DNA from: Acidimicrobiia bacterium
Lineage (GTDB): Bacteria; Actinomycetota; Acidimicrobiia; Spongiisociales; ZC4RG35
Assembly: GCA_036374335.1 (NCBI GenBank)
Contig: DASUUC010000085.1
Span: 1,193-65,192 of the forward strand
Direction: 5' to 3'
Length of the DNA: 64,000 bases
Position numbers and translations under genes: made by a program. The stretch's first letter is position 1, and the number at the start of each line of letters is the position of its first letter. Positions 15,318 through 32,410 of the stretch are shown in pieces. The notes beneath the pieces were generated by a model. It did no database searches. It was not told the origin of the DNA and saw only the letters and a list, made by a program, of their open reading frames with translations.

Positions 15318-16817
15318 TCAGCGACCGATATCGGGCTCGCTCTGCCGGGCTCGGGCCCTGATCGTGAAAACCGAATCACCCGAGAGGACCCCTCCCCTGC
15401 CGAACAAGCGGCCGAACTGCCAGTTGGACAGCCCCAGCTCCGGCCGATTGAACGCATACTGGCCGTCCACCCAGCGAGTGAAGCCGTTGCCGACGAATGG
15501 AGCGTCGATCAGGTCGAAGAACTCGTCATGCTCCTCGTGGACCTCCGAGATGAGACTGGCCGCGAACCGGGGGCTCTGCTCGTTGAACATGGCGATAGCC
15601 TCCTCTACGTCGGGCACGAGAGTGAGGGTGACCTCAGGACTGCCCTCCCATTCCCACTCCACGCCCAACTGGTCGTCGTCGATCGTCTCTGTCCGCGGCT
15701 CGGTGACGGGACCCTCGGCCCGCAGCACCGACGACGGTTCGAACCACGCGGGAGGGATGAGATGGCGGACGTTGGTCGTCACGTGGAGCTTTGCGGTCGC
15801 ACCGGTTCTCTCCCCGGCACGATGCAACGACTCGAGGAACACGGGCACCAGGTCCTCGGCACGGGATGCCACGATGCAGGTCGTGTTGAGGGTGTTGCAC
15901 ACCTTGCGGTCGAGGGAGTTGTAGACGGCAGCGGCAAACGCCCCTGGGTCGGCCGACTCGGCGGCGATCACCCAGGCACCTCCGGTTCCGTGGAGGCTCA
16001 CCGGTATCCCGGTCTGGCGAGCCACCGAGCCGAGTTGGGAGACTGCCCGCCCCGAGCCACGGGCAACCGCCAGGCCGAGCCGCGCATCGGAGAACATCGC
16101 CCAACCGGCAGCACGCGAAGGGGTGTCCACTAGCGACACGGCGCCCGTGGGCAGGCCCGCCCTTTCCAGGGCGGGTTGAAGAGCACGCGCCACGATCGCC
16201 CGGGCCGTTCCCAGCGCATCGGACCCGATCCTGAAGACCACCGTGTTCCCCGCGGCGAGCACTCCGGTAGCGTCCGCGAACACATTGGGCCGTCCCTCGA
16301 AGACGAATCCGACCACACCGAGGCCCGATCGCACCTGTTCGAGCGTCCAGCCATCATGGTCGATGGTCTCGACCACCCGGCCCCGACCGACGTCGCTGCC
16401 TGCCCACAGCCTCAGGCCGTCGATCATGCCCTGTCGCATACCGTCGCTGAGCAACAATCTGGTTGTCGAACGACCTCGCTGGCGGGCGTGCTCCACGTCG
16501 GATGCGTTCGCTTCTGCGATGGGGCCGAACGAGGCGTCGTCCTTCAAATGGTCGGCGAAGGTGTTGAAGAAGGTCTCCAGTTGGACGTCGGTCACCGATC
16601 CCATCACCGAGAACGCCTCCGATGCGGCATCGATAGCGGTCCCGGCCCGATCCCACTCGGCTTCGGGGATGTGGAGCAGGGCCCCGGTGTCCTGCACGAC
16701 GACGAGCCGATCGCCCGGCGCAAATGCTCGGGCCAACTCCTCGTCGACATGTACCACCCTGTTGCCGCCGTAGAGGATGGGCATTCCCGCTTTCAGCTCG
16801 GTCAGGGTCTCGGACAT
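15318..16817 (-). CDS. proA: Divergent glutamate-5-semialdehyde dehydrogenase (ProA)-like aldehyde dehydrogenase with an N-terminal extension
   Basis: 499 aa. ProA-like blocks GVVGFVFEGRPNVFADA, SLDRKVCNTLNT (catalytic Cys) and GNGFTRWVDGQYAFNRPELGLSN. About 60-70 extra N-terminal residues. Immediately downstream of proB. Confidence 0.65.
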   Translation of the reverse strand: MSETLTELKAGMPILYGGNRVVHVDEELARAFAPGDRLVVVQDTGALLHIPEAEWDRAGTAIDAASEAFSVMGSVTDVQLETFFNTFADHLKDDASFGPIAEANASDVEHARQRGRSTTRLLLSDGMRQGMIDGLRLWAGSDVGRGRVVETIDHDGWTLEQVRSGLGVVGFVFEGRPNVFADATGVLAAGNTVVFRIGSDALGTARAIVARALQPALERAGLPTGAVSLVDTPSRAAGWAMFSDARLGLAVARGSGRAVSQLGSVARQTGIPVSLHGTGGAWVIAAESADPGAFAAAVYNSLDRKVCNTLNTTCIVASRAEDLVPVFLESLHRAGERTGATAKLHVTTNVRHLIPPAWFEPSSVLRAEGPVTEPRTETIDDDQLGVEWEWEGSPEVTLTLVPDVEEAIAMFNEQSPRFAASLISEVHEEHDEFFDLIDAPFVGNGFTRWVDGQYAFNRPELGLSNWQFGRLFGRGGVLSGDSVFTIRARARQSEPDIGR

Positions 16818-16829
16818 CTCGTCTCGATC

Positions 16830-17927
16830 CTAAGCCAGCACGACGAGGTCGTCGCGATGGATGACCTCGCCACCAGCAACCGAGGTGTGCTCGCCCCTGA
16901 CCCGAGCTATCTCAGCTGCGGACATGGCAACCAGCCCCTTCGCGATCAAAGCGTCACCGAGTTTGACCTCCACGGCTGCACCACCGGGAAAGACACCCTC
17001 GACTTCGGTGACACCAACGGGTAGCAGTGACTTGCCCGAGTCGGTCAAGGCACGAGCCGCCCCCGGGTCTACCGATATAAACCCCTCTGACGGGGAGCCG
17101 AAGGCAATCCAGAGTTTGCGGGCGGACAGACCAGACTGGCGCGGGTCGACCCATGTGCCGACGTCATCGCCCGCGATCGACCGGGCGACCACTCGTTCGG
17201 CGGAGGCGGAGGCGATCACGGTCGGAATGCCCGAGTAAGCCGCCATGCGGGCGGCGGCCACCTTGGTGGCCACCCCACCTGAGCCAAAGCGGCCACGGCT
17301 CGAGTTCAACCTCAAGTCGTCGAGTATCTCGTCGGTGTGGCGCACCGCAGACAACAGTTCGGCGTTCTCGGTCAACCAGGGATCTCCCGAATAGATCCCA
17401 GTCGTGTCGGTGAGGAGTACGAGCATCCCGGCGCCGACGAGGTGGGACACGATGGCGGCGAGGCGGTCGTTGTCGCCAAACCTAACCTCGTCGACCACGA
17501 CGGTGTCGTTCTCGTTGACGATGGGGACCACGCCCAGGCCAAGCATCCGCTCCAATGCGGCGCGGGCGTGTAGATAGTGATCGCGGCGCGCCACGACTTC
17601 TCTCGTGATCAGCACCTGTCCTACCTGGCGTCCCAAGCTTTCGAACTCTTCGGTGTACATCGTCATGAGACGACTCTGGCCCACCGCGGCCGCTGCCTGA
17701 AGACCCGGGATGTCCACCGGACGGGCAGTCAGCCCCATCACAGGCAGCCCGGCGGCAATCGCCCCGGATGTCACGAGAACGGTGGGATGGCCCGCCGCCC
17801 AGGCGGATTCGACATTGGCGACGACACGGCGGATCGACTGTCTGTCGATTCCCGGACCTGGCCCGGACAGACTCGACGTGCCGATCTTCACCACCACTGG
17901 AGAACTGGGCTTGGCCGGCCTTCTCAT
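16830..17927 (-). CDS. proB: Glutamate 5-kinase with a C-terminal PUA domain
   Basis: 365 aa from ATG 17927 (MRRPAKPSSPVVVKIGTSSL). AAK-family motifs LVTSGAIAAG and NENDTV. PUA-like C-terminus. Confidence 0.85.
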   Translation of the reverse strand: MRRPAKPSSPVVVKIGTSSLSGPGPGIDRQSIRRVVANVESAWAAGHPTVLVTSGAIAAGLPVMGLTARPVDIPGLQAAAAVGQSRLMTMYTEEFESLGRQVGQVLITREVVARRDHYLHARAALERMLGLGVVPIVNENDTVVVDEVRFGDNDRLAAIVSHLVGAGMLVLLTDTTGIYSGDPWLTENAELLSAVRHTDEILDDLRLNSSRGRFGSGGVATKVAAARMAAYSGIPTVIASASAERVVARSIAGDDVGTWVDPRQSGLSARKLWIAFGSPSEGFISVDPGAARALTDSGKSLLPVGVTEVEGVFPGGAAVEVKLGDALIAKGLVAMSAAEIARVRGEHTSVAGGEVIHRDDLVVLA

Positions 17928-17990
17928 CGGACCGGGCACGGTAATCGCATGCCACGGCCATTCCGTGAGGTTTTCGCGCTCCGTCAGGTG

Positions 17991-18037
17991 AATGAAACGC
18001 CGCACCTCCCATATATGGGAGCCACAGCATTAGGAAC
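17991..18037 (-). repeat. Family-1 47-nt structured element, copy 2
   Basis: Minus-strand read: GTTCCTAATGCTGTGGCTCCCATATATGGGAGGTGCGGCGTTTCATT. It starts 5 nt after the TGA (18042-18044) of the permease-amidohydrolase gene. Confidence 0.85.
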
Positions 18038-18041
18038 GCGT

Positions 18042-20510
18042 TCAGATCTTGGGGACCCGGAAGCCGGACTTTTCGATGACGTGGCGGCGGGCATCGTCGG
18101 CCATGCGCATCACCGCGGGCCAGTCGACGTGGAGGAGCGTCCCGCCCCGCTTCATGACGCGGCCGGCGATGATCACGGTGTCGACGTTGCCGGTGTCCAT
18201 CCCGGCGACCACGGCTGTCACGGGATCGTTGAGCGGTGTGACATTGATCCGATCAGTGCGTAACAGGACGATGTCGGCCTGCTTCCCCGGGGTCAGGGTC
18301 CCCACCTTGTGCTCGAGGCCGTTGGCCCGGGCCCCTTCGAGAGTGGCCCAGCGCAGGACATCCCGGGTCGACACCGGTGTCTTCTCCCGAGCAGAAGCCA
18401 GTGACCTCTGCAGGGCGAGGACAGAACGCATCTGATTGAACATGTCGGAGGGGACGTTGGTCTCCACGTCGACACTGAGGCTGGGGGCGAGACCCCGGTC
18501 GAGGAACTTCTGGATCGGCGGCATTCCATGGCCCATCATCATCTCGACCGGTGAGGCGAGAGAGACTGTGCCTCCAGTGTCGACGATCATCTGGATCTCG
18601 GTGTCGTTGAGCGTCGTGCAGTGGATGTACGTCGTGTCCGACCCGAGGAGCCCCACCTCACCGAACTCCTGCACCTTCCCATCCTGGCCGTAGCTGCCCA
18701 CACCGACATGGGTGGTGATGCGGGCGCCGGTCTCCCGGGCCAGCTTCCAGTGATCACGAGACACCTCGAAGTCGGTGAACTCCGGTCCCGGGGCGGCCAA
18801 GGCGAGAGTGAGCATTTGCTCCTTCGTTGCGAAGTGCTCGGTGGCGGCGCGGACGAACCAGCTGGGCTGGCGCTCTTCCCATTTGCCCCACCAGGGGAAG
18901 CCGTATGCGAAGACGGCTCGCAGCCCGGAGTCTTCGAGAGCCTCCACCACCGCGTCGGTGTGGGCCGGCGACCCCTGGATGTGGGACCAGTCGAGCAGGG
19001 TGGTGATCCCGGCATCGATAGCCCCCAGCGCCGATATCAGGTTGCCAACGTAAGCGTCCTCCGGCCGGAAGGCCGGAGCCAACTTGTGCAGCACGAACGA
19101 GATGTAGCTGGTCCGACCCTCCAGAGGCACATCGGTGCCGATGTTGCGGAGCAGACCTTCCCAGATATGACGGTGGGTGTCGACGAACCCGGGGAGGACG
19201 ATCATCCCGGTGGCGTCGATCACTTCAGCGTCGTCCGCAGTGACATTGGGTCCCACCGAAACGATCTTGTCGGCTTCGATGAGCACATCCCCAGGTGTGA
19301 AGTCCCCCACGGCCGGATCGAGACTGATGACGGTGCCACCTTTGAGCAATCGCCGTCCGGGCTGAGGCACACTGAAGTCGACTCCTGACGGGTAGAACTC
19401 GGGGATCGCCGACTTCTCGGCGACGCGACTCCCCTGCACCAAGCGACGCACTCTTCTGAAGTTCCGCTTGACCAGCTCTTTCAGATCCCCCGCCTGGAAC
19501 AGGATGATCCCGAGGAGGACGAGGACGCCAATGATCATCGAGCCATCACTCGGGGTCAGACCAAGGAAGGGGAGCACGGTGATGATGAGAGCCAACAGCA
19601 CCGCGGCCACGCTGCTGCCGATGAACGTAGCCCGGCCCCCGGCGAGGGATGCCCCTCCGAGGACGGCCGCCGTGATGCTGTTCAGGGCGAAGGTGGAGCC
19701 GATCGACGCATTGCCGATCGGGGACCGTGCCACCACCATGAACGAGGCGGCCGCGGCCAGTAGACCGGCGAGCAGCAGGGCCCGAACTCGAACCCAGTTG
19801 GTCCCGATGCCGCCTCGCTTGGCCGACCTCTCATCAAACCCAACTGCCCGCACTGCAAGACCCGAACCAGAGGCGTGCAGCCACAGGTCGAGAAGCCCGG
19901 CACCGACGACGATCACCATGAATGTGAGGGGAATCGGTCCGACCCGGGCAGTCAAGAAAGACACGAGATCGGCGCTGATGGCCCCCTGAGCGGTGGGCCT
20001 CAAAGTCAGTGAGATCCCATCGAGGATGCTCAACGTCGCCAGCGTCGCGATGATCGAGGGGATCTTGACACCACGGATCAATCCCGCATTGACCAACCCG
20101 AGGACCAGGCCCGCGCCGAGGACGGCAGCCACACCGATGAGGATCTGTGAGAGACCGGCCTCGGCCCGGATGAGGAAAGAGGCAGCAACGACACCGAAAC
20201 TGATCATCGCCCCGACGGACAGGTCGAGGTAGCCAACCAGGATGGCGTGTGTCTGAGCAATGGCGGCGACGGCGAGCGGCATCGCCAGAATCAGGATGTT
20301 GAATATGTTCGATTCGTTCAGGAACCCCTCGAAGCGGGTGCTCGTGTACCAGAGGAGGCCTGCGATGAGCAGGATCTGGAGAGCCACCGGCATCCACAGG
20401 CGGAACCTGATCACCTTGCGCCACTTGTTCTTGTCCCGGGCGTTGCGCAGGACCTTTCGGACGAGCTGGCGAGTCGAGTCCACTCGTGTAGTTGTCAGCG
20501 GCTGGGTCAC
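18042..20510 (-). CDS. Fusion protein: CUT2-type ABC transporter permease (N-terminal ~355 aa) plus amidohydrolase (C-terminal ~430 aa)
   Basis: Uninterrupted 822-aa ORF. RbsC-like polytopic membrane region, a basic linker (KRNFRRVRRLVQGSR), then an amidohydrolase region with VLPGFVDTHRHIWEG. That region is clearly paralogous to the free amidohydrolase at 24633-25967. GTGA overlap with the ATPase stop. Confidence 0.8.
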   Translation of the reverse strand: MTQPLTTTRVDSTRQLVRKVLRNARDKNKWRKVIRFRLWMPVALQILLIAGLLWYTSTRFEGFLNESNIFNILILAMPLAVAAIAQTHAILVGYLDLSVGAMISFGVVAASFLIRAEAGLSQILIGVAAVLGAGLVLGLVNAGLIRGVKIPSIIATLATLSILDGISLTLRPTAQGAISADLVSFLTARVGPIPLTFMVIVVGAGLLDLWLHASGSGLAVRAVGFDERSAKRGGIGTNWVRVRALLLAGLLAAAASFMVVARSPIGNASIGSTFALNSITAAVLGGASLAGGRATFIGSSVAAVLLALIITVLPFLGLTPSDGSMIIGVLVLLGIILFQAGDLKELVKRNFRRVRRLVQGSRVAEKSAIPEFYPSGVDFSVPQPGRRLLKGGTVISLDPAVGDFTPGDVLIEADKIVSVGPNVTADDAEVIDATGMIVLPGFVDTHRHIWEGLLRNIGTDVPLEGRTSYISFVLHKLAPAFRPEDAYVGNLISALGAIDAGITTLLDWSHIQGSPAHTDAVVEALEDSGLRAVFAYGFPWWGKWEERQPSWFVRAATEHFATKEQMLTLALAAPGPEFTDFEVSRDHWKLARETGARITTHVGVGSYGQDGKVQEFGEVGLLGSDTTYIHCTTLNDTEIQMIVDTGGTVSLASPVEMMMGHGMPPIQKFLDRGLAPSLSVDVETNVPSDMFNQMRSVLALQRSLASAREKTPVSTRDVLRWATLEGARANGLEHKVGTLTPGKQADIVLLRTDRINVTPLNDPVTAVVAGMDTGNVDTVIIAGRVMKRGGTLLHVDWPAVMRMADDARRHVIEKSGFRVPKI

Positions 20511-22102
20511 GATGCGGACTCCTTGCTCGCTGCCTTGGGCATGGCCACGCCGAGAGGTGATCTGGAGGACTTCGACATGCCCGGCCCTCTGACGATCGCC
20601 TCGACTATGCGGACCTCGTCGAGCTCCTCACCCGGAATCTCTTCCACGATGGTGCCCCGTGACATGACCAGCACCCGATCGCAAAATCCTGAGAGCTCGA
20701 TCGGATCGCTCGACTTGACCAGAATCGCTGCTCCGGCGTCACTACGAATCCGTAACGCCTCATAGATGTCGAAGCGGGAGCCGACGTCGACACCTTGTGT
20801 CGGCTCGTAGGCCAGGATCACCGAAGGCTCCTTGAGAAACGATCGGGCCACGGAGACCTTCTGCTGATTCCCCCCGGAGAGGAATTCCACCGGCTGGTCC
20901 AGGGCCGGGGTGCGGATCTTGAGCTGGCCCACCAGATCTTTGACCGCCCTGCGCTCCGCGCCTCTGCGCAAGAACCCCAGTGTGGAGAATTTCTTGATCG
21001 ATTGGATCGTGGCGTTGACCCGGACACCGAGCACGCCCATCAGGGCTTCGCGTTTCCGATCACCGGGTAACAGCAGGATCCCGGCGTCCACCGCCTCGTG
21101 AGTGGAGATGAGGGTGAGCTCTCTTCCATCACAAACTACGAGGCCGGCACGCGGAGGGAGACGTCCCGAGAGTGTGTCGAAGAGTTGCGGCTGGCCGTTG
21201 CCCTCGGCCCCGGCGATACCGACGATCTCCCCGCTGTGCAGAGTGAAGCTGACTGGCCCGAACGACTGGCCCTGGAGTCCGTCGACCACCAGCGCCTCGC
21301 CCGCCTCTCCCGATTGCGGGCGAGGTGGCGGGAATGCCGCCTCGAAAGGACGGCCCACTATGTGCTCGACGAGTTTCGGCTCTGAGGTCGTCCTGGCGTC
21401 GAATGTCCCCTCGTTGCGTCCATCGCGAAGGACGGTGACCCGGTCGGCGACCTCGAGGACCTCGGGCAAGCGGTGACTGACGTACACCACTCCCACGCCG
21501 CGCCGCTTGCACGCCAGCACCGTGCGGTGCAATGCCTCCACCTCGTCAGGCCCCAGAGCCGTAGTCGGTTCGTCGAGCAGCAAGACCTTGGGGTCGGTTA
21601 CCAGGGCCTTGGCGACCTCGAACAATTGACGCTCGGCCAGGGTGAGAAACCCCGCCGGCACATCGGGAAAGAGCTCGATGTCGAGATCGAACTCGGCGAG
21701 CAAACGCCGGGCCCACCTCTTTCGCTGCCAGTACGGAGGCCTCTCGTCCGGTGGAGCCCCGAGGTAGAGGTTGTTCTTCACCGGCTCCGGCCCCACCGCA
21801 GAGCCATCTTGATAGGCCATCGCCAGGCCCAGCTTTCTGGCAAGGGCCGGCGAGTCCCGTCTCAGGCGTTTGCCCCCGATCCGGATGGTTCCCCGATCGG
21901 GGTCGACGAATCCTGAGGCGATCCCGAGGAGGGTCGACTTGCCCGAGCCGTTCTCGCCGACGAGAGCATGCACTTCGCCGGCGCGACAGTCGAACCGGAC
22001 GTCACTCAGCGCCCGGACGGCCCCGAACTGACGGGACACGCCCGCCAGCTCGAGGACCGTCTCGTTGCCTTTCGACTCTCCTCCGGGATCGCTTGCGATC
22101 AT
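20507..22102 (-). CDS. Sugar-type (CUT2) ABC transporter ATP-binding protein with duplicated NBDs
   Basis: 531 aa. Walker A GENGSGKST, signature LTLAERQ, Walker B LLLDEPT. Second, degenerate NBD (GAEGNGQPQ ... LSGGNQQK ... ILAYEPTQGVD). Confidence 0.9.
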   Translation of the reverse strand: MIASDPGGESKGNETVLELAGVSRQFGAVRALSDVRFDCRAGEVHALVGENGSGKSTLLGIASGFVDPDRGTIRIGGKRLRRDSPALARKLGLAMAYQDGSAVGPEPVKNNLYLGAPPDERPPYWQRKRWARRLLAEFDLDIELFPDVPAGFLTLAERQLFEVAKALVTDPKVLLLDEPTTALGPDEVEALHRTVLACKRRGVGVVYVSHRLPEVLEVADRVTVLRDGRNEGTFDARTTSEPKLVEHIVGRPFEAAFPPPRPQSGEAGEALVVDGLQGQSFGPVSFTLHSGEIVGIAGAEGNGQPQLFDTLSGRLPPRAGLVVCDGRELTLISTHEAVDAGILLLPGDRKREALMGVLGVRVNATIQSIKKFSTLGFLRRGAERRAVKDLVGQLKIRTPALDQPVEFLSGGNQQKVSVARSFLKEPSVILAYEPTQGVDVGSRFDIYEALRIRSDAGAAILVKSSDPIELSGFCDRVLVMSRGTIVEEIPGEELDEVRIVEAIVRGPGMSKSSRSPLGVAMPKAASKESAS

Positions 22103-23499
22103 CAGCCGCCGAACATGAGAGCCAGGACGTCGTCGGGCACCAGTGACGTGCCCGACACGACCGGGTTGGGCCGATCGGGATCACAGTCGTCTGCGGTCAC
22201 CTCACGCATGACGTGAGGGACGGTGACTTCACCCGGCACGTCGGCGCCCTGCAACGCCAGCATCGCGGCAGTGACCCCTACCCGCGACTGGAAGTTGCCT
22301 CCTGCGGAGTAGAAGATCTGGTAGGTCGGCTCATCGCGTTCGACCCAGTCACAGAACAAGCTCTGCTCATCGGTGCGCAGTGCCAGCGTGAGATTCTCCA
22401 CCGGAATGCCCAGCTCTTCGTAGGCCTGGAGCCCGGCGAGGACACCATCGGCATACTCGTAGGCGTAGCCCCGAATGTCTGGTGTGGCCGTCAGCAGCCC
22501 CCGGAAGATGTCCGGGATGATCGGGTTGAACCAGTTGGTGTCACCCGTCGTGCTGTTCTCATCCGCAGGTGGGTTCACCACGCTGAGACTGTCACCGAGG
22601 GAATCGATGGTGCATCGCTGCCAACCGAGCGACAGGGCGTTGCCCGGTGTTCCACCGAGGAGAGCCACGTTGCCACTGTCGATGTTGGTGTTCAGGGTCT
22701 CGGCGAAGCTATTGCCCAGCTCGCAGAGGTCCTCGCCAACAACGGCCGTGTAGTCCTCACCGGGGGTCAGGGCCCCTTCCTGTCCGGGTAGCCCGACATA
22801 GCCCGCGGAGAACGGAACGTACGGGATACCCGCCGCCTCCGCCTCCTGGACCACCGGAGCGAGTAGCGCACCCATGTCGGGGTATCCAACGATGAAGTCG
22901 ACGTTGCTCTGGATCAGGAACCTCAGGTCGTTCTCGTGAACTGCCGGGTCTTGATCGAAGTTGGCCGCCGTCGAGATGATCGTGCCGATCTCTGGATAGG
23001 TGAGCGCCTGGAGAACGGCCTCCATGTGGCTCACGGCCCGCCAGACGTTGACATCGTTCCCACCACCGTCGGCGTAGCCCATCACCAGCTCGCCACCGCT
23101 GCCAGTCTCGCATTGCTGCTCCCGCCAGCACTCCATGGCCTTGTCGATGGTTGCCTGATCGAGCTCCTGATTGGCCCGGGCCACCGACGCCAGGATGACG
23201 TTCCAACTGGCCTCATCCGAGGGATCGACCGGCCCCAGGGCTTTCTCGATCAGCGCCGGGTCGGCCGCACTTGGATCCTCCCCGAACTCGGCAAGAGGGT
23301 TGTCCGTCTCGCCCTCGGCTGTGGTCGAGGTGACCATGGCCTCTGTGGTTGTCACCTCATCCGGCGCCTCGGTCGTCGTCGGCTCCTCGGATTCGACGGT
23401 TGTCGTGGTGTCTCCGGTGTCCCCGGCGTCCTCGCCGGCACATGCCGCGACCAATAGGGCCAGCACCGTGATGAGGCCGATCATCTTTGTTCGTTTCAT
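22102..23499 (-). CDS. ABC transporter substrate-binding lipoprotein (type I periplasmic-binding fold) with a Thr/Glu-rich linker
   Basis: 465 aa from ATG 23499, preceded by GGAGGAGGAA. Lipobox LLVAACAG. Low-complexity TTTTVESEEPTTTEAPDEVTTTE linker. Sits within the ABC operon. Confidence 0.8.
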   Translation of the reverse strand: MKRTKMIGLITVLALLVAACAGEDAGDTGDTTTTVESEEPTTTEAPDEVTTTEAMVTSTTAEGETDNPLAEFGEDPSAADPALIEKALGPVDPSDEASWNVILASVARANQELDQATIDKAMECWREQQCETGSGGELVMGYADGGGNDVNVWRAVSHMEAVLQALTYPEIGTIISTAANFDQDPAVHENDLRFLIQSNVDFIVGYPDMGALLAPVVQEAEAAGIPYVPFSAGYVGLPGQEGALTPGEDYTAVVGEDLCELGNSFAETLNTNIDSGNVALLGGTPGNALSLGWQRCTIDSLGDSLSVVNPPADENSTTGDTNWFNPIIPDIFRGLLTATPDIRGYAYEYADGVLAGLQAYEELGIPVENLTLALRTDEQSLFCDWVERDEPTYQIFYSAGGNFQSRVGVTAAMLALQGADVPGEVTVPHVMREVTADDCDPDRPNPVVSGTSLVPDDVLALMFGG

Positions 23500-23586
23500 T
23501 TCCTCCTCCATATGGGCTTGTCTGCCCTCGTTTCATTTCTCATTTCATCGTCGATTCGCGTCTCTAGTGGCACTCAATCTCCTTTC

Positions 23587-24636
23587 TCAACCTGGTTCGG
23601 CAAATGAGTTTTCGGTTTCTCGTCTTTCCCGCCGACCCGGTCTTCGCCGTTCGCGGAGCACCCGCTCCACGACTTTGATGATCCGATCGCCGGAAACCAG
23701 CATCCCTCCGATGATGACGAGGCCGAACACCACGAACTGGAGCGCGGTAGACAGCCCCAGGGTGAGGAGCATCTGATTGAGACCGGTGAGGAAGATCGCC
23801 CCCACAAACGTGGAGAAGGCGCTGGCCAGACCGCCGGTCAGGGATGCTCCACCGATGACAACAGCCGCGATCGGTCCCAGGAGGTATTGGGTCTGGGCGG
23901 CGACCCCGGGAGTGCGGAGCAGCCCGGCCAAAGCCACTCCGGCGAATGCGTAGAAGACGGCGGCCACCACATAGACCAGGATCTGGTTGAGGTTGACCCT
24001 GATGCCGACCACGTGGGAGGCGACCGGGTTGGCGCCCACCACCTGGAATCTCCGGCCCACCGAGGTGTACCTGAACCCGAGGATGAGGGCGATGGTGAGG
24101 AGTAGGCCTAGCCAGAAGACCGGGCTCATCCCGAATATGCGGGTGAATGTCCATTGCGACCATCCCGTCGGCACCTGGCTCTGAACCGGGAAGGTTCGCC
24201 CGTAGCGGTTGACCACCCCGATCACGACCTGACCGACGGCGAGGGTGACGATGAGGGCATTCAGCTTGAGCCCTCCGATCAGGATGCCGTTGACCAGCCC
24301 GATGAGTGCTCCGACACCGAGTGCGGTGACGATGGCAAGACCGATTCGGTTGTCTGATCCCTGTCCGATCCCGACCATGATCGCCGCCGCCAATGTGACG
24401 GTTCCGGGCGTGCTCAGGTCGATCCCGCCGGTCATGATCACCAGCATCTGGCCCAGCGCGGTGATCCCCAGCAGGGCGCCATAAGGGGCTATTGCCCGCA
24501 GCGCGACACTGCTGAGGGTGTTGGGCGCCCATACGGCGGCGACGATGACGAGCAGGATGATCGCCAGATACACCGGCATGTACCGGGAGGCGACGACGAA
24601 GGAGGTCAACGCAGAAGAGGGGGTGCGCGTGGTCAC
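23587..24636 (-). CDS. CUT2-type ABC transporter permease (RbsC-like)
   Basis: 349 aa polytopic membrane protein, paralogous to the N-terminal half of 18042-20510. GTG start overlaps the amidohydrolase stop. Confidence 0.85.
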   Translation of the reverse strand: MTTRTPSSALTSFVVASRYMPVYLAIILLVIVAAVWAPNTLSSVALRAIAPYGALLGITALGQMLVIMTGGIDLSTPGTVTLAAAIMVGIGQGSDNRIGLAIVTALGVGALIGLVNGILIGGLKLNALIVTLAVGQVVIGVVNRYGRTFPVQSQVPTGWSQWTFTRIFGMSPVFWLGLLLTIALILGFRYTSVGRRFQVVGANPVASHVVGIRVNLNQILVYVVAAVFYAFAGVALAGLLRTPGVAAQTQYLLGPIAAVVIGGASLTGGLASAFSTFVGAIFLTGLNQMLLTLGLSTALQFVVFGLVIIGGMLVSGDRIIKVVERVLRERRRPGRRERRETENSFAEPG

Positions 24637-25967
24637 ATTGCTCCCCCGCTGGCGGCCATCAGCCCCGACGCTGCGCCAACGCGGCTGCGCGCCCGCGCCG
24701 CCAGGTCGCGAGCCCTGGCAATGTCCGCGGTGAGCTCACCATTGCGCACCAGCGCACGGCCCCCGGAGAACACCCAGTCGACGTTGGAGGTGTCCATGCC
24801 CCACACCACCGCGCCAATCGGGTCGTTGATCGGCCAAATGTTGGGCCGGTCGGTGCGGAGCACCACGATGTCCGCCTCCTTGCCCGGCTCGAGCGATCCG
24901 GTTATGTCTCCGAGACCGGCCACCCGGGCCCCGTCGACGGTGGCGAAGCGGATCACCTCACGTGTGGTCAACAGGTTGGGCAGCCCGCCCTTGCCGGCGA
25001 GCTTGAGATCGAAATGAGTGGCGTGCTGCACCGAGTTGGCGGCCCGCATCTGGGCGAAGATGTCCCCCGGTGTGACCCGCTCGCTTCCAACTCCGAGACC
25101 GGGCCGGATCCCCCGATCGATCAGCTGCTGAATCGGTGGCATGCCCAGGCCGTCGGCCATCTCGCTGGAAGGGGCGAGAGAAACGGGTGTCTTGTGGGCG
25201 GCGATGGCATCGAGGTCGGCGTCGTCGAGGTGAGAGCAATGGATCAGCGTGACGTCCCCGCCAAGTAGCCCGCGCTGCGCGAGGTCGGAGACGATGCCTC
25301 GGTCGGCGGGCTGTGAGCCGACGTGGGCATGGATCCTGAGCCCGAGCTCTCGGGCGATAGCCCATTCTCTGCTCACCCGGTCGAGGTCGAGTCGGCTCGG
25401 ATCGCGGGGGCCGAATGCTATCGATGTGGCTGAATCGGCGGAATCGACACGCTCCCGGGCGAGTCGTCTCAGCCCACCGGTCTCCTCCTGCTGCCTACCG
25501 TCCCATCCTGGCAAGGCATGCACGAACACGGTTCGCAGCCCGGAGTCGTGGTGTGCCTCGAGGGCGGCGTCGACATGGCCGGGCTGCGGGGGGATGTCGG
25601 ACCAGTCGACCACCGTGGTGATGCCGGCTTCGGCGGCACCGAGCAGCCCAATGAGGGTGGCGGCGTAGACGTCCTCGGGCTCGTGATGAGGCCCGTAGAT
25701 GGTGGCAGACACCGGGATGCCGTTGCTCGACCCGGTCTCTCCCAGGTTGCGAAAGAGCGACTTCCAGGCATGACGGTGGGTGTCGACGAAACCGGGCATC
25801 ACGATGGTGTTGGTGGCGTCGATCACCTCGGCATCACGAGATCGCAAACCCGTCCCGATCTCGGCGACCTTGCCGTTCTCCACCAGAACGTCGGCCTGGG
25901 GATGGTTGGCTGTCTTGGCCCCGAGGGTGAGTACACAGCCTCCCCTGATCAGGACTTTTTCCTTCAA
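24633..25967 (-). CDS. Amidohydrolase family protein (HxH metal-binding; deaminase/chlorohydrolase-like subgroup)
   Basis: 444 aa. VMPGFVDTHRHAWKS, HAHVG, IHCSHL, GVGSERV motifs. Paralogue of the fused amidohydrolase domain. Confidence 0.85.
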   Translation of the reverse strand: MKEKVLIRGGCVLTLGAKTANHPQADVLVENGKVAEIGTGLRSRDAEVIDATNTIVMPGFVDTHRHAWKSLFRNLGETGSSNGIPVSATIYGPHHEPEDVYAATLIGLLGAAEAGITTVVDWSDIPPQPGHVDAALEAHHDSGLRTVFVHALPGWDGRQQEETGGLRRLARERVDSADSATSIAFGPRDPSRLDLDRVSREWAIARELGLRIHAHVGSQPADRGIVSDLAQRGLLGGDVTLIHCSHLDDADLDAIAAHKTPVSLAPSSEMADGLGMPPIQQLIDRGIRPGLGVGSERVTPGDIFAQMRAANSVQHATHFDLKLAGKGGLPNLLTTREVIRFATVDGARVAGLGDITGSLEPGKEADIVVLRTDRPNIWPINDPIGAVVWGMDTSNVDWVFSGGRALVRNGELTADIARARDLAARARSRVGAASGLMAASGGAM

Positions 25968-26953
25968 AAGGCAACTCCCGAGTCGACCGACTTCAGAACT
26001 GTCTCGTAGATCCTGTCGGCCGACGGGATAGCGAGGTCCTCGAGCGAGGCCGCAGCAGGCAGCGGTATGTGAGGTGTGGTGATGCGGATGCTGGGACCGT
26101 CGAGATCCCAGAATGCCTCCTCGTCGACGATGGAGACCAGTTCGGCTCCCCAGCCACAGAGCCGGGGATTCTCCTCCACGGTGAAGAAACGACCCGTCTT
26201 CGTAACCGACCGCAGCAATGTTCGGGTGTCCAGCGGCACCAATGAGCGGACATCGATCACCTCGACCGACAAGCCCGAATCGGCGAGACGCTCGGCGGCC
26301 TCCACGGCCCGGGGCACCATGAGGGCGAGGGCGGCGATGGTTGCATCTGTCCCATCTCTGACCACCCTGGCCTTCCCCAGTTCGTCGACGATCTCACCAT
26401 CGGGGATCTCGGCTTTGTCGGCCATCAGCGACTTGTGCTCGAAGAAGACCACCGGATCGGGATCACGCACGGCCGCAGCCATGAGGCCGACGACGTCGAC
26501 CGGGTTGGAGGGGGCCACCACCTTGAGACCGGGGATCATCATGCACCAGTTCTCCACCGACTGCGAGTGCTGCGCCCCGAAGCGGGAACCACCGCCGTTG
26601 GCGGTGCGCACCACGAGAGGGAAGCTCACCTGACCATCGGTCATGTATCGGCTCTTGGCGACCTGGTTGGCCAGCATGTCAAAGCAGACCGCGATGAAAT
26701 CGGAGAACATGATCTCGGCGATCACCGGCACACCCGTCATGGCCGCACCCATCGCCGCCCCGAGAATTGCCTGCTCGGAGATAGGAGTGTCACGGATCCG
26801 GTCAGGCCCGAACTGGTCGAGCAGGCCCACGGTGGTCTTGAAGACCCCGCCGGCGGCGGCGATGTCCTCGCCCAGCATGACCAGGCTGGGATCACGCCGC
26901 ATCTCCTGGGCGATCCCGTAGGCGACCGCATCCCGGTAACTCAGTTCCGCCAT
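25964..26953 (-). CDS. TPP-dependent 2-oxoacid/acetoin dehydrogenase E1 component, beta subunit
   Basis: 329 aa. Typical E1-beta N-terminus (LSYRDAVAYGIAQEMRRDPSLVMLGEDI) and transketolase-like C-terminal domain. Confidence 0.9.
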   Translation of the reverse strand: MAELSYRDAVAYGIAQEMRRDPSLVMLGEDIAAAGGVFKTTVGLLDQFGPDRIRDTPISEQAILGAAMGAAMTGVPVIAEIMFSDFIAVCFDMLANQVAKSRYMTDGQVSFPLVVRTANGGGSRFGAQHSQSVENWCMMIPGLKVVAPSNPVDVVGLMAAAVRDPDPVVFFEHKSLMADKAEIPDGEIVDELGKARVVRDGTDATIAALALMVPRAVEAAERLADSGLSVEVIDVRSLVPLDTRTLLRSVTKTGRFFTVEENPRLCGWGAELVSIVDEEAFWDLDGPSIRITTPHIPLPAAASLEDLAIPSADRIYETVLKSVDSGVAF

Positions 26954-28002
26954 CGTGAGCCCCCATCGGAATAGACCTCGGTCATGAGCGACTCCTCTCC
27001 TGGGATCGCACCGGCCTTGGCGAACTCGGTGGCGGCATCGACCGCCTCGGCCACCTCGCGCTCGATGGTGCTCAGAGTGGCTTCAGGTGTCCCCAGCGAA
27101 AGCAATCGGTCGTGATACATCGGGATCGGGTCGCGCGCTTTCCATGCGTCGACCTCCTCGGGCGGGCGGTACTTCCCGGGATCGGCTCGGGAATGCCCTC
27201 CGGAACGGTAGGTGACAGCCTCGATCAGCGACGGGCCACCCCCGGAGCGGGCTCTGGAGAGCGCCTCCCGGGCGGTCAGGTATACCGCATCGGGATCGTT
27301 GCCGTCGATGAGGATCGACTCCAGGCCGTAGGCCCCGGCCCTATCTGCCGCCGGGTTGTCGACCGCAGTGATCAAGTCGATCGGGGTGTACTCCATGTAG
27401 AGGTTGTTCTCACACACAAAGACCACGGGGAGACTCCAGATCTTGGCCATGTTGAGGGCTTCGTGGAAGGCGCCGATGTTGGTGGTGCCGTCGCCGAAGA
27501 AGGCGACAGCAACCTGGTCGGTGCCCCGCATCTGCGCCGACCAAGCGGCGCCGTTGGCCACACACAGGTGGGCTCCGATGATGGCGTAGGAGCCCATCAT
27601 CCCCCTCCCGGCGTCGGTGAGGTGCATCGACCCTCCTTTGCCGCCGAGCACCCCGTTGGAGCGGCCGAGCAGTTCGGCCATGGCCGGGCCCATCTCCATG
27701 CCACGGGCCAGCGAGTGGGCGTGGCCCCGGTAGGTGGCGAAGGTGTAGTCGTCGGGGCGCATCGCCTGCCCGAACCCGGTGGCGATCGCCTCCATGCCCA
27801 ACGAGAGGTGGCTGGTCCCTTTGACCAGGTTCTGCAGGAACAGATCGTGGGCCCGCTTTTCGAACTGTCTCAACTCGTGAAGCTTGCGATACATCCCGTT
27901 TCGGGTCTCGGAGTCGATATCCGCCTGGGCCAGCGACTCGTCGACCGGTTCGGGTAGCCGGGGCTCCCGGAGGGCGTAGTCGTGGAGGGAATCAGTAGGC
28001 AT
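26941..28002 (-). CDS. TPP-dependent 2-oxoacid/acetoin dehydrogenase E1 component, alpha subunit
   Basis: About 353 aa from ATG 28002, overlapping the M24 gene stop (alternative start 28023). TPP motif GDGTTNIGAFHEALNMAKIWSLPVVFVCENNLY. Confidence 0.85.
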   Translation of the reverse strand: MPTDSLHDYALREPRLPEPVDESLAQADIDSETRNGMYRKLHELRQFEKRAHDLFLQNLVKGTSHLSLGMEAIATGFGQAMRPDDYTFATYRGHAHSLARGMEMGPAMAELLGRSNGVLGGKGGSMHLTDAGRGMMGSYAIIGAHLCVANGAAWSAQMRGTDQVAVAFFGDGTTNIGAFHEALNMAKIWSLPVVFVCENNLYMEYTPIDLITAVDNPAADRAGAYGLESILIDGNDPDAVYLTAREALSRARSGGGPSLIEAVTYRSGGHSRADPGKYRPPEEVDAWKARDPIPMYHDRLLSLGTPEATLSTIEREVAEAVDAATEFAKAGAIPGEESLMTEVYSDGGSRWRN

Positions 28003-29245
28003 TGGCCACCATGAGCTCTTCACAGGGGAACAGGGTGATCACCTTGCACCCGTCGGCGGTGACGACCACTTCCTCCTCGATGCGGGCCGCGGACCGGCCG
28101 TCGGCGGCGGGGGCATAGGTCTCCAGTGCAAACACCATGCCTTCCTGGATCTCCACCGGTGTCTCCAGTGAGTTGAGCCGGCTGATGATCGGCCGCTCGT
28201 GCAGGCCGGCGCCCACTCCATGGCCGAACTGGAGGCCGAAGGCGTCCATCTCGTCTTCGAAGCCAAACTCATGCGCTTCGGGCCAAACCTTGGCGATCTG
28301 GTCGGTGGTCGTGCCCGGTTTCACCAATTCGATTGCGGCGTCCATCCACTCCCGGGATTGCTTGAAGGCGTCGTGCTGCGCCTGGGTGGCGCGACCTACC
28401 ACGAAGGTCCGGTAATAACAGGTGCGGTACCCGTTGAAGACATGGATGATGTCGAAATATGCCTGGTCACCAGGGCGGATAAGCCGGTCGCTGAAGACGT
28501 GAGGGTGGGGGCTGCACCGCTCACCGGCGATCGAGTTGATCGCCTCGACGAACTCGGAGCCCATCTCGAAGAGACGGGCATGGGCCATGCCGACCACATC
28601 GGACTCGCGGATACCGGGTTTGAGCATCTCGAAGATGTCCTGATAGACCCCGTCGACCATGGCACATGCCTGGGTGAGGAGGATGATCTCGTCGTCGCTC
28701 TTGATCTCCCGGGCCCGCATCATCGCCTGCTGCCCGTCCACGACGTTGAGACCCGCCTCCTGGAGGGCGAGGAGGACCGCGGTCTCCGCCATGTCCACTC
28801 CCAGCTTCTCCTCGGCCACCCCGGCGTCCTCCAAGAACCCTCTGATCTCGCGCACGGCCCGGTCATGCAACCCGGTCTCGGGCCCGATCGCCCCCTGCAG
28901 GCCGGTATTGCCGCCAACCGAGTTCTCGGTGTCGAACAGGTGAGGGAGCTGGAGACGGTGTGCCTTGGCAGCGGACCCGAAGTCCCAGACCTTGGGACGA
29001 CCCTCCCTGGTCACCACTGCCCATCGCTCACCCTTGTTGAAGGCCCAGTACCCGATTTGAGTCGCGGTGGCATACCTGATGTTCGACGTCTCGAAAAGGA
29101 GCACGGCTCCGAGGTCGAAATCGTCGAGCATCTGGCGGACGCGATCGAGCCGGGACCCACGGAGGCGCTCGAAATCCACCCGGGACTCCCAATCCACCCC
29201 CATGACACCGGGTGAGAAGCTCGTAGCTACAGGAAATTCGGCCAT
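27992..29245 (-). CDS. M24 family metallopeptidase-fold hydrolase (creatinase / Xaa-Pro dipeptidase / ectoine-hydrolase-like)
   Basis: 417 aa from ATG 29245 (GGAGCAAGAG upstream). Creatinase-type N-terminal domain plus a pita-bread C-terminal domain (HGVGAGLHE, MVFALETY). The track ORF reaching 29458 is an extension. Confidence 0.8.
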   Translation of the reverse strand: MAEFPVATSFSPGVMGVDWESRVDFERLRGSRLDRVRQMLDDFDLGAVLLFETSNIRYATATQIGYWAFNKGERWAVVTREGRPKVWDFGSAAKAHRLQLPHLFDTENSVGGNTGLQGAIGPETGLHDRAVREIRGFLEDAGVAEEKLGVDMAETAVLLALQEAGLNVVDGQQAMMRAREIKSDDEIILLTQACAMVDGVYQDIFEMLKPGIRESDVVGMAHARLFEMGSEFVEAINSIAGERCSPHPHVFSDRLIRPGDQAYFDIIHVFNGYRTCYYRTFVVGRATQAQHDAFKQSREWMDAAIELVKPGTTTDQIAKVWPEAHEFGFEDEMDAFGLQFGHGVGAGLHERPIISRLNSLETPVEIQEGMVFALETYAPAADGRSAARIEEEVVVTADGCKVITLFPCEELMVANAY

Positions 29246-29261
29246 CTCTTGCTCCTTGTCC

Positions 29262-30173
29262 TCATTGCGGTCCTTGCCCTGACTCTTCGGCCAGGGCGTT
29301 CTCCAAATATGTCCAGTCTCGGGCGAAACGGTACGAGTGACGTGGCGGGGGTTGAGGAGCCTGGGTTTCCAGCCATCTGACGATCCCGTCCCCGATGTTG
29401 CGGAACTCGTGGACACATCCGACACCGGCCCAGGCCACGTCGCCCGGCTCCAATTCATAGCTGATCCCGTCGAATGTCGCCTCCACCTCCCCGGCGAGGA
29501 TCTGATAGGCCTCCTCGAGAGGATGGTCGTGCGCCCCGGCGAATCCGCCCTGCTCGTATTGGACCATGAACATCGTGGAGAGGTCAGCCCCCAGGTCGGA
29601 GTCGACCATCATCTTGACGCTGATCCCGCTGTAGACGAGGAGAGCTGTGCGCATGCTGGCGCTCTGGGCGAGACGATCCTGGGTCTGCATCGCCGGATCC
29701 ATGTTCTCCGGCTCGATGTGACCGAAGTAGCGGTTGCGGGGATCACGGACATCGATGGACGCCGGATCGAGTGTCGGTATGGGTGCGGGGAATTGGGTGT
29801 CGAACTGGAATCGTTCCCGGGGCAGGGGCGCCTTCATCTCGGAGAACGACACCCTCTCCGACGAGGTGTTGCCAAACGCGTGGGTCATTCCCACCGGAAT
29901 CAGGCCGTAGTCACCTGCGACGAGTTGATAGCTGCCTTCGGTAGTGTCGACCGTGAGCGCACCCTCCACAACGTAGAGGGACTCCTCGAATGAGTGGACA
30001 TGGGTGTCGACCCCCCCGCCGGGCTCGAGCCGGGAGATGGCGAATCCCATCTGCACCGAGCCGCCGGCTTCGTCTACGACCCCGTCTCGGGTGTAACCGT
30101 TGCTTCGCCCCTCGAACTCGGAGGGAACGTCGAACTGGAGCTTGCCCAACTTCTTCACGATGTGGTTGGCCAT
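29262..30173 (-). CDS. Bicupin protein
   Basis: 303 aa with two cupin cores (GGVDTHVHSFEESLYVVEG...GMTHAF and GAHDHPLEEAYQILAG...GCVHEF). Confidence 0.7.
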   Translation of the reverse strand: MANHIVKKLGKLQFDVPSEFEGRSNGYTRDGVVDEAGGSVQMGFAISRLEPGGGVDTHVHSFEESLYVVEGALTVDTTEGSYQLVAGDYGLIPVGMTHAFGNTSSERVSFSEMKAPLPRERFQFDTQFPAPIPTLDPASIDVRDPRNRYFGHIEPENMDPAMQTQDRLAQSASMRTALLVYSGISVKMMVDSDLGADLSTMFMVQYEQGGFAGAHDHPLEEAYQILAGEVEATFDGISYELEPGDVAWAGVGCVHEFRNIGDGIVRWLETQAPQPPPRHSYRFARDWTYLENALAEESGQGPQ

Positions 30174-31054: not shown

Positions 31055-31098
31055 TTCGCTCCTCACTGATAAGTGACACTACACAAATCTGGCGACGT

Positions 31099-32313: not shown

Positions 32314-32410
32314 ACCGTCATCCCAACTACCCGCATTGTGATCAGCCTCACTGCACATCCGTCGATTCTGCCGTATATCCTCGCTGATGTTCTAGGAAGG
32401 AGCGAGTCAG

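Follow-up and report, generated by a model that had tools for sequence, protein, structure and literature searches.

A CUT2-type importer permease joined in one reading frame to an amidohydrolase in an order of uncultured soil Acidimicrobiia

The window analysed here, a stretch of 64,000 nucleotides from an Acidimicrobiia bacterium, carries at 18042–20510 on the minus strand a gene for one real polypeptide of 822 amino acids, in which an importer permease (permease 2, hereafter Perm2) is followed by a connector and an amidohydrolase. We propose, with a probability of about 0.7, that this polypeptide is of single origin and that its tethered enzyme acts on the imported solute as the first catabolic step. 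It is apparently a natural, undescribed case of an enzyme tethered to an importer that probably feeds it. The first-pass annotation had been aware of no characterised arrangement of this kind for CUT2 importers, and our literature search likewise found no description of a permease–amidohydrolase fusion.

The open-reading-frame listing gives the gene as one frame without a break, beginning at a GTG codon that overlaps the stop codon of the ATPase gene (GTGA). All coordinates below refer to the minus strand unless stated otherwise. The polypeptide comprises a basic N-terminal tail, predicted to be cytoplasmic, with 11 lysine and arginine residues (residues 1–35; 20406–20510); a CUT2/RbsC-type membrane domain with 10 predicted transmembrane helices, delimited by Pfam, NCBIfam and an AF2 model (residues 36–342; 19485–20405); a connector, delimited by the ortholog alignment and the AF2 model (residues 343–385; 19356–19484); and an amidohydrolase domain of the PRK08204 subfamily with a predicted AtzA/TrzN/MTA-deaminase-like fold (residues 386–822; 18045–19355). 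Pfam places BPD_transp_2 (PF02653) at residues 68–333 (3e-17; 63 bits vs. a cutoff of 26.8) and Amidohydro_1 (PF01979) at residues 437–785 (4e-35; 122 bits). Among the NCBIfam models, AraH, RbsC and LsrC match the permease part at 1e-22 to 1e-30, and NF006056 (PRK08204) spans residues 386–815 over model positions 4–444 of 449, scoring 512.9 bits against a cutoff of 391. The listing and both sets of models confirm the earlier claim of a single unbroken 822-residue frame uniting an RbsC-like permease with a full amidohydrolase; the VDTHRHIW metal motif lies at residues 443–450, and the connector falls near the junction first proposed at about 19325–19450.

The fused gene belongs to one tightly packed row of minus-strand genes, whose core order, AmhA–Perm1–SBP–ATPase–fusion, is constant between loci. 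AmhA (24633–25967; 444 amino acids) is a free PRK08204-type paralog of the fused hydrolase (NF006056, 394.9 bits); Perm1 (23587–24636; 349 amino acids) is an unfused permease (BPD_transp_2, 89.5 bits); the ATPase (20507–22102; 531 amino acids) is RbsA/AraG-like, contains two ABC_tran stretches and matches AraG, XylG and RbsA over its full length (E 1e-103 to 1e-112). Such BPD_transp_2 permeases, together with a single ATPase polypeptide bearing two nucleotide-binding domains (NBDs), support by family resemblance the assignment of the system to the CUT2 importers. The substrate-binding lipoprotein SBP (22102–23511; 469 amino acids) has a lipobox (LLVAAC), an acidic Thr/Glu-rich tether and a divergent Peripla_BP_4 domain, which is recognised over residues 183–369 only (45.3 bits; cutoff 35.1); no NCBIfam model matched it, and its matches to CUT2 binding proteins in the PDB are weak (E 4e-4 to 4e-3). 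As all NCBIfam equivalog scores fall far under their cutoffs, the substrate is probably not one of the known sugars.

Upstream of AmhA lie genes for a TPP-dependent E1 component (25964–28023; E1 beta 25964–26953, E1 alpha 26941–28023), an M24 hydrolase resembling creatinase, prolidase and DddP (27992–29458), a bicupin (29262–30173) and a dehydrogenase resembling HIBADH and tartronate-semialdehyde reductase (30173–31066). On the plus strand, divergent from the operon, an SDR gene (32411–33103) is followed by an ORF for an XRE-HTH and cupin regulator (within 32947–33744), the two together occupying 32411–33744. The M24, E1 alpha/beta, cupin, SDR and HIBADH-type genes are often linked to the core, the last of these in some loci. 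SBP, M24, bicupin, E1 alpha/beta, SDR and HIBADH gave family-level matches only in NCBIfam, Pfam and the PDB. Candidate routes through allantoin and the ureides, creatinine, ectoine, DMSP-like compounds, diketopiperazines and Amadori compounds were considered and rejected, as none fits all the enzymes.

We propose that the SBP lipoprotein would hand Perm1/Perm2 a solute that is small, polar and probably nitrogen-containing, and that the tandem-NBD ATPase would power its import; the tethered hydrolase would then begin catabolism on the inner side of the importer, where the tether could keep the enzyme locally concentrated and let the substrate be trapped at once; and the products would pass to the linked M24 hydrolase, TPP-dependent E1 alpha/beta, bicupin, SDR and HIBADH-like reductase. 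Direct coupling between import and hydrolysis is plausible, given the tethering.

The residues of the fused domain suggest a complete, catalytically equipped metal-dependent amidohydrolase, which would act on the imported solute. The ligand set of the amidohydrolase superfamily is complete: the strand-1 HxH motif (H446-R-H448; 19167–19175), the histidines of strands 5 and 6 (H601 and H630) and the strand-8 aspartate (D681; 18468–18470); all five ligands are invariant in 91 of 91 fused orthologs, and the aspartate is present in 98% of the wider family. A Foldseek search supports the predicted (beta/alpha)8 barrel: AtzA, TrzN, MTA-deaminase and Vcz are fold relatives at target-normalised TM-scores of 0.8–0.9, and the top 50 matches are all hydrolases. 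For the permease, phmmer against PDB sequences returned no solved relative. The HxxE glutamate of the cog0402 deaminases is replaced in the fused domain (THVGV vs. THLAE in 3hpa); position 604 is occupied by V, A, G, F or M, and never by Glu, among 129 family representatives; and the deaminase equivalog models of NCBIfam all score far under their cutoffs. Since the PRK08204 subfamily lacks this glutamate, the label “MTA/SAH deaminase” is doubtful; NCBIfam itself labels NF006056 “hypothetical protein”. JGI names the orthologs as deaminases, a filing that we have not adopted.

As the first-pass annotation had advised, other genomes were searched for the fused architecture, and it recurs in independent assemblies, from short and long reads alike, and in closed chromosomes. 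In NCBI, JGI, ENA and Logan, over 120 protein clusters contain the same fusion at 81–95% identity and 821–824 amino acids, and at least 80 species-level genomes, closed chromosomes among them, carry it at 74–87% identity. Among genomes sampled from the order of the window, it is present in 129 of 401, spread over 49 of 107 genera and 9 families; no fused copy was found outside the order in the 401-genome sample of the class, and 1.84 billion representatives of 50%-identity clusters include only one full-length fused representative. A genome labelled “Acidobacteriota” (L046), which would have extended the fusion to another phylum, proved to be G250 itself, within the family of the window. In our tree the fused domains group together (SH-aLRT 99), and the sister of this clade is a pair of standalone genes of that order (support 98). 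The tree thus shows a single origin of the fusion: a standalone hydrolase gene was joined to the permease once, within one order of soil Acidimicrobiia. The comparison of orthologs indicates that the fusion has since been maintained by purifying selection. The carrier soil Acidimicrobiia are abundant though uncultured.

It is possible, with perhaps one chance in four, that the fusion is passive, i.e. that it secures only 1:1 co-expression and membrane localisation, with no kinetic coupling, channelling or gating, such that a split form would serve equally well. Two close standalone hydrolase paralogs (65–67% identity) indeed exist without an adjacent permease; one genome (G027) has the soluble pathway module without the fused importer; and about two thirds of the sampled genomes of the order do not have the fusion, which is therefore dispensable. 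The AF2 model of the fusion is also consistent with a passive tether: it shows no confident interdomain packing (pTM 0.60; connector pLDDT 50–67), and this uncertain domain placement means that no geometry backs channelling. However, among the 129 fusion-carrying genomes there is no split ortholog, and hence no natural reversion to two genes; the apparent splits in G002, G030 and G295 are each a 1-nt indel, after which the peptide continues in another frame with no new start codon downstream, and we reject gene fission for all three. The fused hydrolase domain, moreover, is the most conserved stretch of the protein. Among 91 orthologs the 43-residue connector is almost free of indels and includes several invariant residues, a fixed length and conservation that would be unexpected for a neutral tether. 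In the AF2 model its first part is a cytoplasmic extension of the TM10 helix (KELVKRNFRRVRRLVQGS), which runs on to residue 361; its second part is a conserved coil, P-x-F-Y-P-x-G-x-D-F. An internal start that would free a separate hydrolase was considered and rejected: codon 381 is start-capable in 38 of 90 orthologs and preceded by an SD-like motif in 18 of 90, and no conserved internal start codon exists at the junction in about 90 orthologs.

The first-pass annotation had also described an unfused pair in the opposite order, with overlapping codons, and had inferred a separate hydrolase partner for each transmembrane subunit. The pair is confirmed at 24633–25967 and 23587–24636, with the AmhA stop overlapping the Perm1 start by 4 nt (GTGA), an overlap that should couple their translation. 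Its two members are paralogs of the corresponding parts of the fusion (hydrolases 42% and permeases 27% identical); the tree makes them distant relatives rather than recent duplicates. A symmetric machine, in which Perm1 with an active AmhA and Perm2 with the fused domain would provide two equivalent catalytic sites, is in our estimate improbable. In its favour, AmhA is full-length and lies directly upstream of Perm1 in 51 of 52 loci, and its HxH motif and H215 are kept in 50 of 50 orthologs; to that extent, the idea of a hydrolase for each permease holds. It fails on equivalence: in the window AmhA has Gly294 (25086–25088) in place of the strand-8 Asp; among 50 orthologs, 34 have D at this position, 13 have G, 2 have A and 1 has E, so that 16 of 50 species lack the aspartate that the wider family nearly always has; and equivalents of the family-conserved, substrate-side residues Y469 and H510 are missing in nearly all species. 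AmhA also changes about four times faster than the fused domain (mean identity to the window 61.6% vs. 83.6%) and has long stem and tip branches in the tree, as befits a distant paralog and not a twin. Because substrate-side residues are missing and a glycine replaces the metal-ligand/general-base aspartate, AmhA in this genome is unlikely to match the fused domain as an active enzyme, and more probably serves as an accessory or non-catalytic partner. A second fusion, of AmhA with Perm1, was also considered and rejected: the open frames of 677–908 amino acids around AmhA in G013, G014 and G002 are upstream out-of-frame extensions over E1 beta, and at these loci Perm1 is always in its own frame and never joined to AmhA.

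A bolder form of our proposal, which we hold at odds of roughly one in eight, is an obligatory import-and-hydrolyse machine resembling group translocation. Since the NBD dimer has to occupy the region immediately below the pore, the only place left for the hydrolase is beside the NBDs; there, under Perm2/Perm1, the fused hydrolase and the degenerate AmhA might form a pseudo-symmetric heterodimer, the substrate might pass from the translocation pathway to the one active site without entering the cytoplasmic pool, and the transport cycle might respond, via the rigid TM10 extension, to whether the hydrolase is occupied or turning over. Quite unlikely, in our judgement, is a mainly regulatory role, in which a hydrolase-like domain would sense cytoplasmic substrate or product and gate transport by trans-inhibition, as in MetN, ModC and MalK. 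The conserved connector would suit a sensor, but the invariance of all the catalytic metal ligands speaks for an enzyme; known regulatory domains are attached to the NBD and not to the transmembrane subunit; and the degenerate copy is AmhA rather than the fused domain.

Our tethered-enzyme reading requires that the hydrolase face the cytoplasm, and both ends of the permease domain, hence the hydrolase, are predicted to do so by the positive-inside rule, the even helix count and the coupling helix. The AF2 model (mean pLDDT 85) contains 10 TM helices, with putative NBD-coupling helices at residues 215–232, between TM6 and TM7; the segment after TM10 is basic (KRNFRRVRR), as is the C-terminal tail of Perm1. 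The topology prediction for which the first-pass annotation had called, drawing here also on the 35-residue N-terminal tail, thus favours the cytoplasmic side. A hydrolase outside the cell, processing the substrate before uptake, is very improbable, as the coupling helices must face the NBDs and the C-terminus therefore lies on the same side, in accordance with the strongly basic N-terminus. Least credible is an artefact in which two neighbouring genes were wrongly joined in a metagenome-assembled genome: the assembly of the window is fragmented (126 contigs), but the same frame occurs in hundreds of independent short- and long-read assemblies and in closed chromosomes, with a connector conserved as protein.

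That a transporter and the first enzyme of its pathway may form a functional unit (“transport metabolons”, vectorial metabolism) has long been debated, and for ABC importers the evidence behind the idea is indirect. In the present case the link has become covalent in the course of evolution and persists in about one third of the sampled genomes of one uncultured soil order. The fusion offers a defined construct, in which flux, substrate leakage and regulation can be compared between the joined form and one split artificially, and a tractable target for cryo-EM. Our analysis also marks the uncharacterised PRK08204 amidohydrolase subfamily as probably catabolic and transport-linked, indicates that automatic “MTA/SAH deaminase” names are unreliable, and presents AmhA as a candidate for a pseudoenzyme-like paralog that has been kept in association with a transporter gene.

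The importer itself resembles the CUT2 systems (TC 3.A.1.2: RbsABC, AraFGH, XylFGH, LsrACDB, YtfQRT-YjfF): it shares their BPD_transp_2 permeases (AraH, RbsC, LsrC and YjfF models), and their two-NBD ATPase polypeptide (AraG, XylG and RbsA models), its binding protein matches Peripla_BP_4 weakly, and its permease pair is heterodimeric, as in LsrCD and YtfT/YjfF. It differs in its binding protein, a 469-residue lipoprotein whose acidic tether is long and whose domain is highly divergent; and we know of no characterised CUT2 member that bears an enzyme on a permease. The fused domain shares the (beta/alpha)8 barrel, the beta-sandwich and the HxH, His, His and Asp metal ligands with the TRZ/ATZ and cog0402 amidohydrolases (AtzA, 4v1x; TrzN, 3ls9; MTA/SAH deaminase, 4f0r; 8-oxoguanine deaminase, 3hpa; isocytosine deaminase Vcz, 7ww2), at an identity of only 20–26%, but lacks their HxxE glutamate.

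Extra domains on ABC importers have precedents: substrate-binding domains are fused to the transmembrane domains of OpuA and GlnPQ, and MetN, ModC and MalK carry regulatory C-terminal domains, a well-known type of cytoplasmic addition, such that importer subunits evidently tolerate domains that improve delivery or control. These additions are binding or regulatory domains rather than catabolic enzymes, and the regulatory ones lie on the NBD. A hydrolase domain held covalently on the cytoplasmic side of an ABC membrane domain, and acting on the transported molecule, is found in PCAT1 and ComA and, as a degenerate C39-like domain, in HlyB; that peptidase-containing transporters also include degenerate, non-catalytic copies is a loose parallel to AmhA. 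However, the PCAT1/ComA type are exporters of type IV fold, with an N-terminal cysteine protease that cuts the leader peptide before export, whereas the fusion belongs to a binding-protein-dependent importer and carries a C-terminal metallo-hydrolase that would act after import. The classical functional likeness is the E. coli glycerophosphodiester importer Ugp, whose cytoplasmic phosphodiesterase UgpQ reportedly acts on the substrate as it is delivered, so that transport and hydrolysis are functionally coupled; UgpQ, however, is soluble and separate from its importer, which is of CUT1 type, whereas in the fusion described here the enzyme and the permease are covalently linked.

The best-supported reading of the 18042-20510 gene is that of a real, ancient and selected fusion, in which an active hydrolase would be held in the cytoplasm at the inner face of its own importer and an imported solute would meet its first catabolic enzyme at high local concentration. 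The ORF listing and translation give a single uninterrupted frame on the minus strand (822 aa, GTG start) with the Pfam domains BPD_transp_2 (residues 68-333) and Amidohydro_1 (residues 437-785). Among NCBIfam models, residues ~30-355 match AraH-, RbsC- and LsrC-type permeases and residues 386-815 match NF006056 (PRK08204, “hypothetical protein”; 512.9 bits, cutoff 391); the VDTHRHIW motif occupies residues 443-450. The row, all on the minus strand, runs 5' to 3' through a HIBADH-like dehydrogenase (30173-31066), a bicupin (29262-30173), an M24 hydrolase (27992-29458), E1 alpha (26941-28023), E1 beta (25964-26953), the free amidohydrolase AmhA (24633-25967), permease 1 (Perm1, 23587-24636), the binding lipoprotein (SBP, 22102-23511), a tandem-NBD ATPase (20507-22102) and the fusion, followed by ProB (16830-18005) and a ProA-like gene (15318-16817). 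GTGA overlaps occur at both the AmhA/Perm1 and the ATPase/fusion junctions, and the first-pass annotation had described the fused ORF and the neighbouring unfused pair accurately.

Some features of the row deserve mention in their own right. It begins with an L-2-hydroxyglutarate oxidase equivalog (31099-32358, minus strand; 512 bits against a cutoff of 299), which accompanies the core in just 6 of 91 loci and is therefore probably outside the conserved pathway. The ProA-like gene (499 aa) scores 141.7 bits, far under the ProA equivalog cutoff of 289. The longest M24 and bicupin ORFs, both on the minus strand, overlap by ~197 nt; as M24 homologs align only from residue ~56-95 onward, the true M24 start is probably farther downstream.

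Passive co-expression is the rival that survives best: the two domains would share a frame merely to be made together. Codon 381 is start-capable in 38 of 90 orthologs and is preceded by an SD-like motif in 18 of 90, so that the junction has no conserved internal start and the hydrolase must rely on translation as part of the fusion. Against passive co-expression stands the connector (residues ~343-386), which is essentially indel-free in 91 fused orthologs, with K344, L346, K348, R355, R356 and Y373 invariant and a conserved P-x-F-Y-P-x-G-x-D-F segment. At matched loci the membrane domain averages 78% identity to the window, the fused hydrolase 83.6% and AmhA 61.6%.

The first-pass annotation had drawn a symmetric picture, with each permease paired with its own hydrolase, and the corresponding rival is a machine with two equivalent enzymes. 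AmhA is indeed kept beside Perm1, lying directly upstream of it in 51 of the 52 loci with enough sequence and always as a full-length ORF, but the symmetric picture is only partly supported. At the strand-8 Asp position, 50 AmhA orthologs carry D (34), G (13), A (2) or E (1), the window's own copy having Gly294; the H510 equivalent is mostly Asp and the Y469 equivalent is absent. On these alignments the AmhA active site is decaying, and such decay together with universal retention points to a non-catalytic role, such as that of a structural partner. In a maximum-likelihood tree of 107 hydrolase sequences, the fused domains all group in one clade (SH-aLRT 99), within which the sole “representative”, P0123, is itself a junction-spanning fragment. 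The sister of this clade (support 98) comprises two standalone genes from the window's order, in genomes G163 and G310, and AmhA forms a separate clade (support 100) with a long stem and with tips several-fold longer than in the fused clade. By this topology the fusion has a single origin in a free gene, and AmhA is an older, fast-evolving paralog and not a twin of the fused domain.

Another rival makes the fused domain a sensor; the five canonical metal ligands (H446, H448, H601, H630 and D681), invariant in the 91 fused orthologs, speak for catalysis. Foldseek matches of the domain are AtzA, MTA/SAH deaminases, the isocytosine deaminase Vcz, TrzN and 3hpa (target-normalised TM-scores 0.8-0.9), and in the PDB it is related by sequence to cog0402 deaminases and chlorohydrolases (E ~1e-28). 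These enzymes use an HxxE glutamate, whereas the fused domain has THVGV aligned to THLAE of 3hpa, and in the wider family none of 129 standalone representatives has Glu at this position, the conserved residues being Y469, D507, H510, H517, E656, D681 and D689 instead (fusion numbering). Since the glutamate is absent, we assign the domain to the amidohydrolase superfamily and to NF006056, not to the deaminases; judged by these residues, the JGI name for the fusion, “5-methylthioadenosine/S-adenosylhomocysteine deaminase”, is probably wrong.

An assembly artefact is countered by the recurrence of the fused architecture across independent assemblies, which the first-pass annotation had proposed to look for. 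A search of 5.8 billion proteins returned >120 protein clusters at 81-95% identity, all of 821-824 aa, all with the same three Pfam domains and drawn from NCBI, JGI, ENA and Logan assemblies. Scanning one genome per GTDB species gave 375 candidate relatives, and the best 80 of these all carry the full-length fusion (74-87% identity); they are all uncultured, mostly soil Acidimicrobiia or Actinomycetota MAGs, and include long-read MAGs and closed chromosomes (e.g. OY970227.1, OY969934.1 and OY970200.1). Six-frame searches of a 401-genome sample of the window's order recovered the fusion as one open frame in 129 genomes (49 of 107 genera, 9 families), and among 401 genomes sampled across the class no fused copy was found beyond that order. 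The 1.84 billion 50%-identity representatives include exactly one that is fused and full-length, the remaining matches being fragments or standalone hydrolases of ~450 aa (<=57% identity). Apparent splits in genomes G002, G030 and G295 were considered as gene fissions and rejected: alignment of the junction DNA showed a single-base indel in each, with the conserved downstream peptide continuing in another frame and no start codon created, so each reflects an assembly error or a very recent lesion.

The G030 locus (L014, G030:C4:80505-83009) keeps its permease frame open for 834 aa, of which ~430 codons cross the entire hydrolase region in the wrong frame, an accidental open frame unusually long even for a GC-rich genome. 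A genome of the window's family carries only fusion residues 575-822 (G118:C28:42900-43643, 79% identity) in a 345-aa open frame, perhaps a truncated relic of a fusion copy that was lost. Contig coordinates are identical between L046, from a MAG titled “uncultured Acidobacteriota bacterium”, and G250, and between L045, from a MAG titled only “bacterium”, and G192, both G250 and G192 being genomes that belong to the window's family. Several MAGs with the fusion carry wrong or uninformative submitter taxonomy, and the Acidobacteriota label of L046, at least, is an error of the submitter.

An external location of the hydrolase is very unlikely, since an even number of helices, a basic N-terminus (11 K+R in the first 35 residues) and a cytoplasmic coupling helix together predict a cytoplasmic C-terminal domain, in agreement with the first-pass annotation. 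The AlphaFold2 model (alignment A1, 126 rows of fusions and free paralogs; mean pLDDT 85, pTM 0.60) has ten TM helices (36-59, 66-91, 98-113, 120-147, 152-169, 195-213, 237-262, 272-284, 296-316 and 320-361), with short helices at 215-232, between TM6 and TM7, at the position expected for NBD coupling. TM10 extends unbroken for ~19 residues past the membrane and is followed by a low-confidence coil (362-385) and the hydrolase, the segment after the last TM helix being KRNFRRVRRLVQGSRVAEK; the model does not position the two domains confidently relative to each other. A sequence search of the PDB found no solved relative of the permease.

The core that stays constant over 91 loci is AmhA-Perm1-SBP-ATPase-fusion. 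M24, E1 alpha/beta and bicupin are linked to it, upstream or downstream, in ~40 loci and SDR and HIBADH in ~20; ProB, ProA and LhgO are linked in close relatives only. In a fusion-less sister family (L096, G027:C237:1-15000), an SDR-bicupin-hydrolase(43%)-M24(73%)-E1beta(69%) cluster neighbours a LacI regulator, another BPD_transp_2 permease, a flavin amine oxidase and an alpha/beta hydrolase. At 67% identity, the nearest standalone homolog of the fused domain (L098, G163:C2:53000-70000) adjoins a LacI regulator, a xanthine-dehydrogenase-type molybdenum hydroxylase, a kynurenine-formamidase-like cyclase and a HIBADH-like gene, a neighbourhood of the N-heterocycle-catabolism type. The G310 paralog (65% identity; the trio at L099:6168-8985) is preceded by an SDR and an XRE-HTH-cupin regulator, a pair also present in the window at 32411-33744, where the PuuR-like ORF of XRE-type HTH then cupin (32947-33744, plus strand), right after the SDR and divergent from the operon, likely regulates the cluster. 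The SBP (lipobox LLVAAC) has a very divergent sugar-type domain, matches no NCBIfam model and bears an unusually long, acidic Thr/Glu-rich tether between lipobox and binding domain (residues ~25-100). Gene context and SBP features suggest a solute that is small, polar and contains nitrogen, for instance a heterocycle, cyclic amide or sugar-like amide; no specific compound that we considered fits all linked enzymes.

The observation of the first-pass annotation is thus confirmed and its interpretation partly supported. Because the NBD dimer must occupy the space directly under the pore, the tethered hydrolase could sit only beside it; direct channelling or gating between importer and hydrolase is possible but unsupported. 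Apart from its borderline SBP, the transporter has the features of a CUT2 importer. In the literature searched we found no description of an ABC importer whose permease carries a fused catabolic enzyme, in line with the earlier remark that this is not known as a characterised CUT2 arrangement, and to our knowledge none has been characterised. The fusion is a natural test case for transport-metabolism coupling, and its nearest analogues in concept are the peptidase-containing ABC exporters and the Ugp/UgpQ pair.
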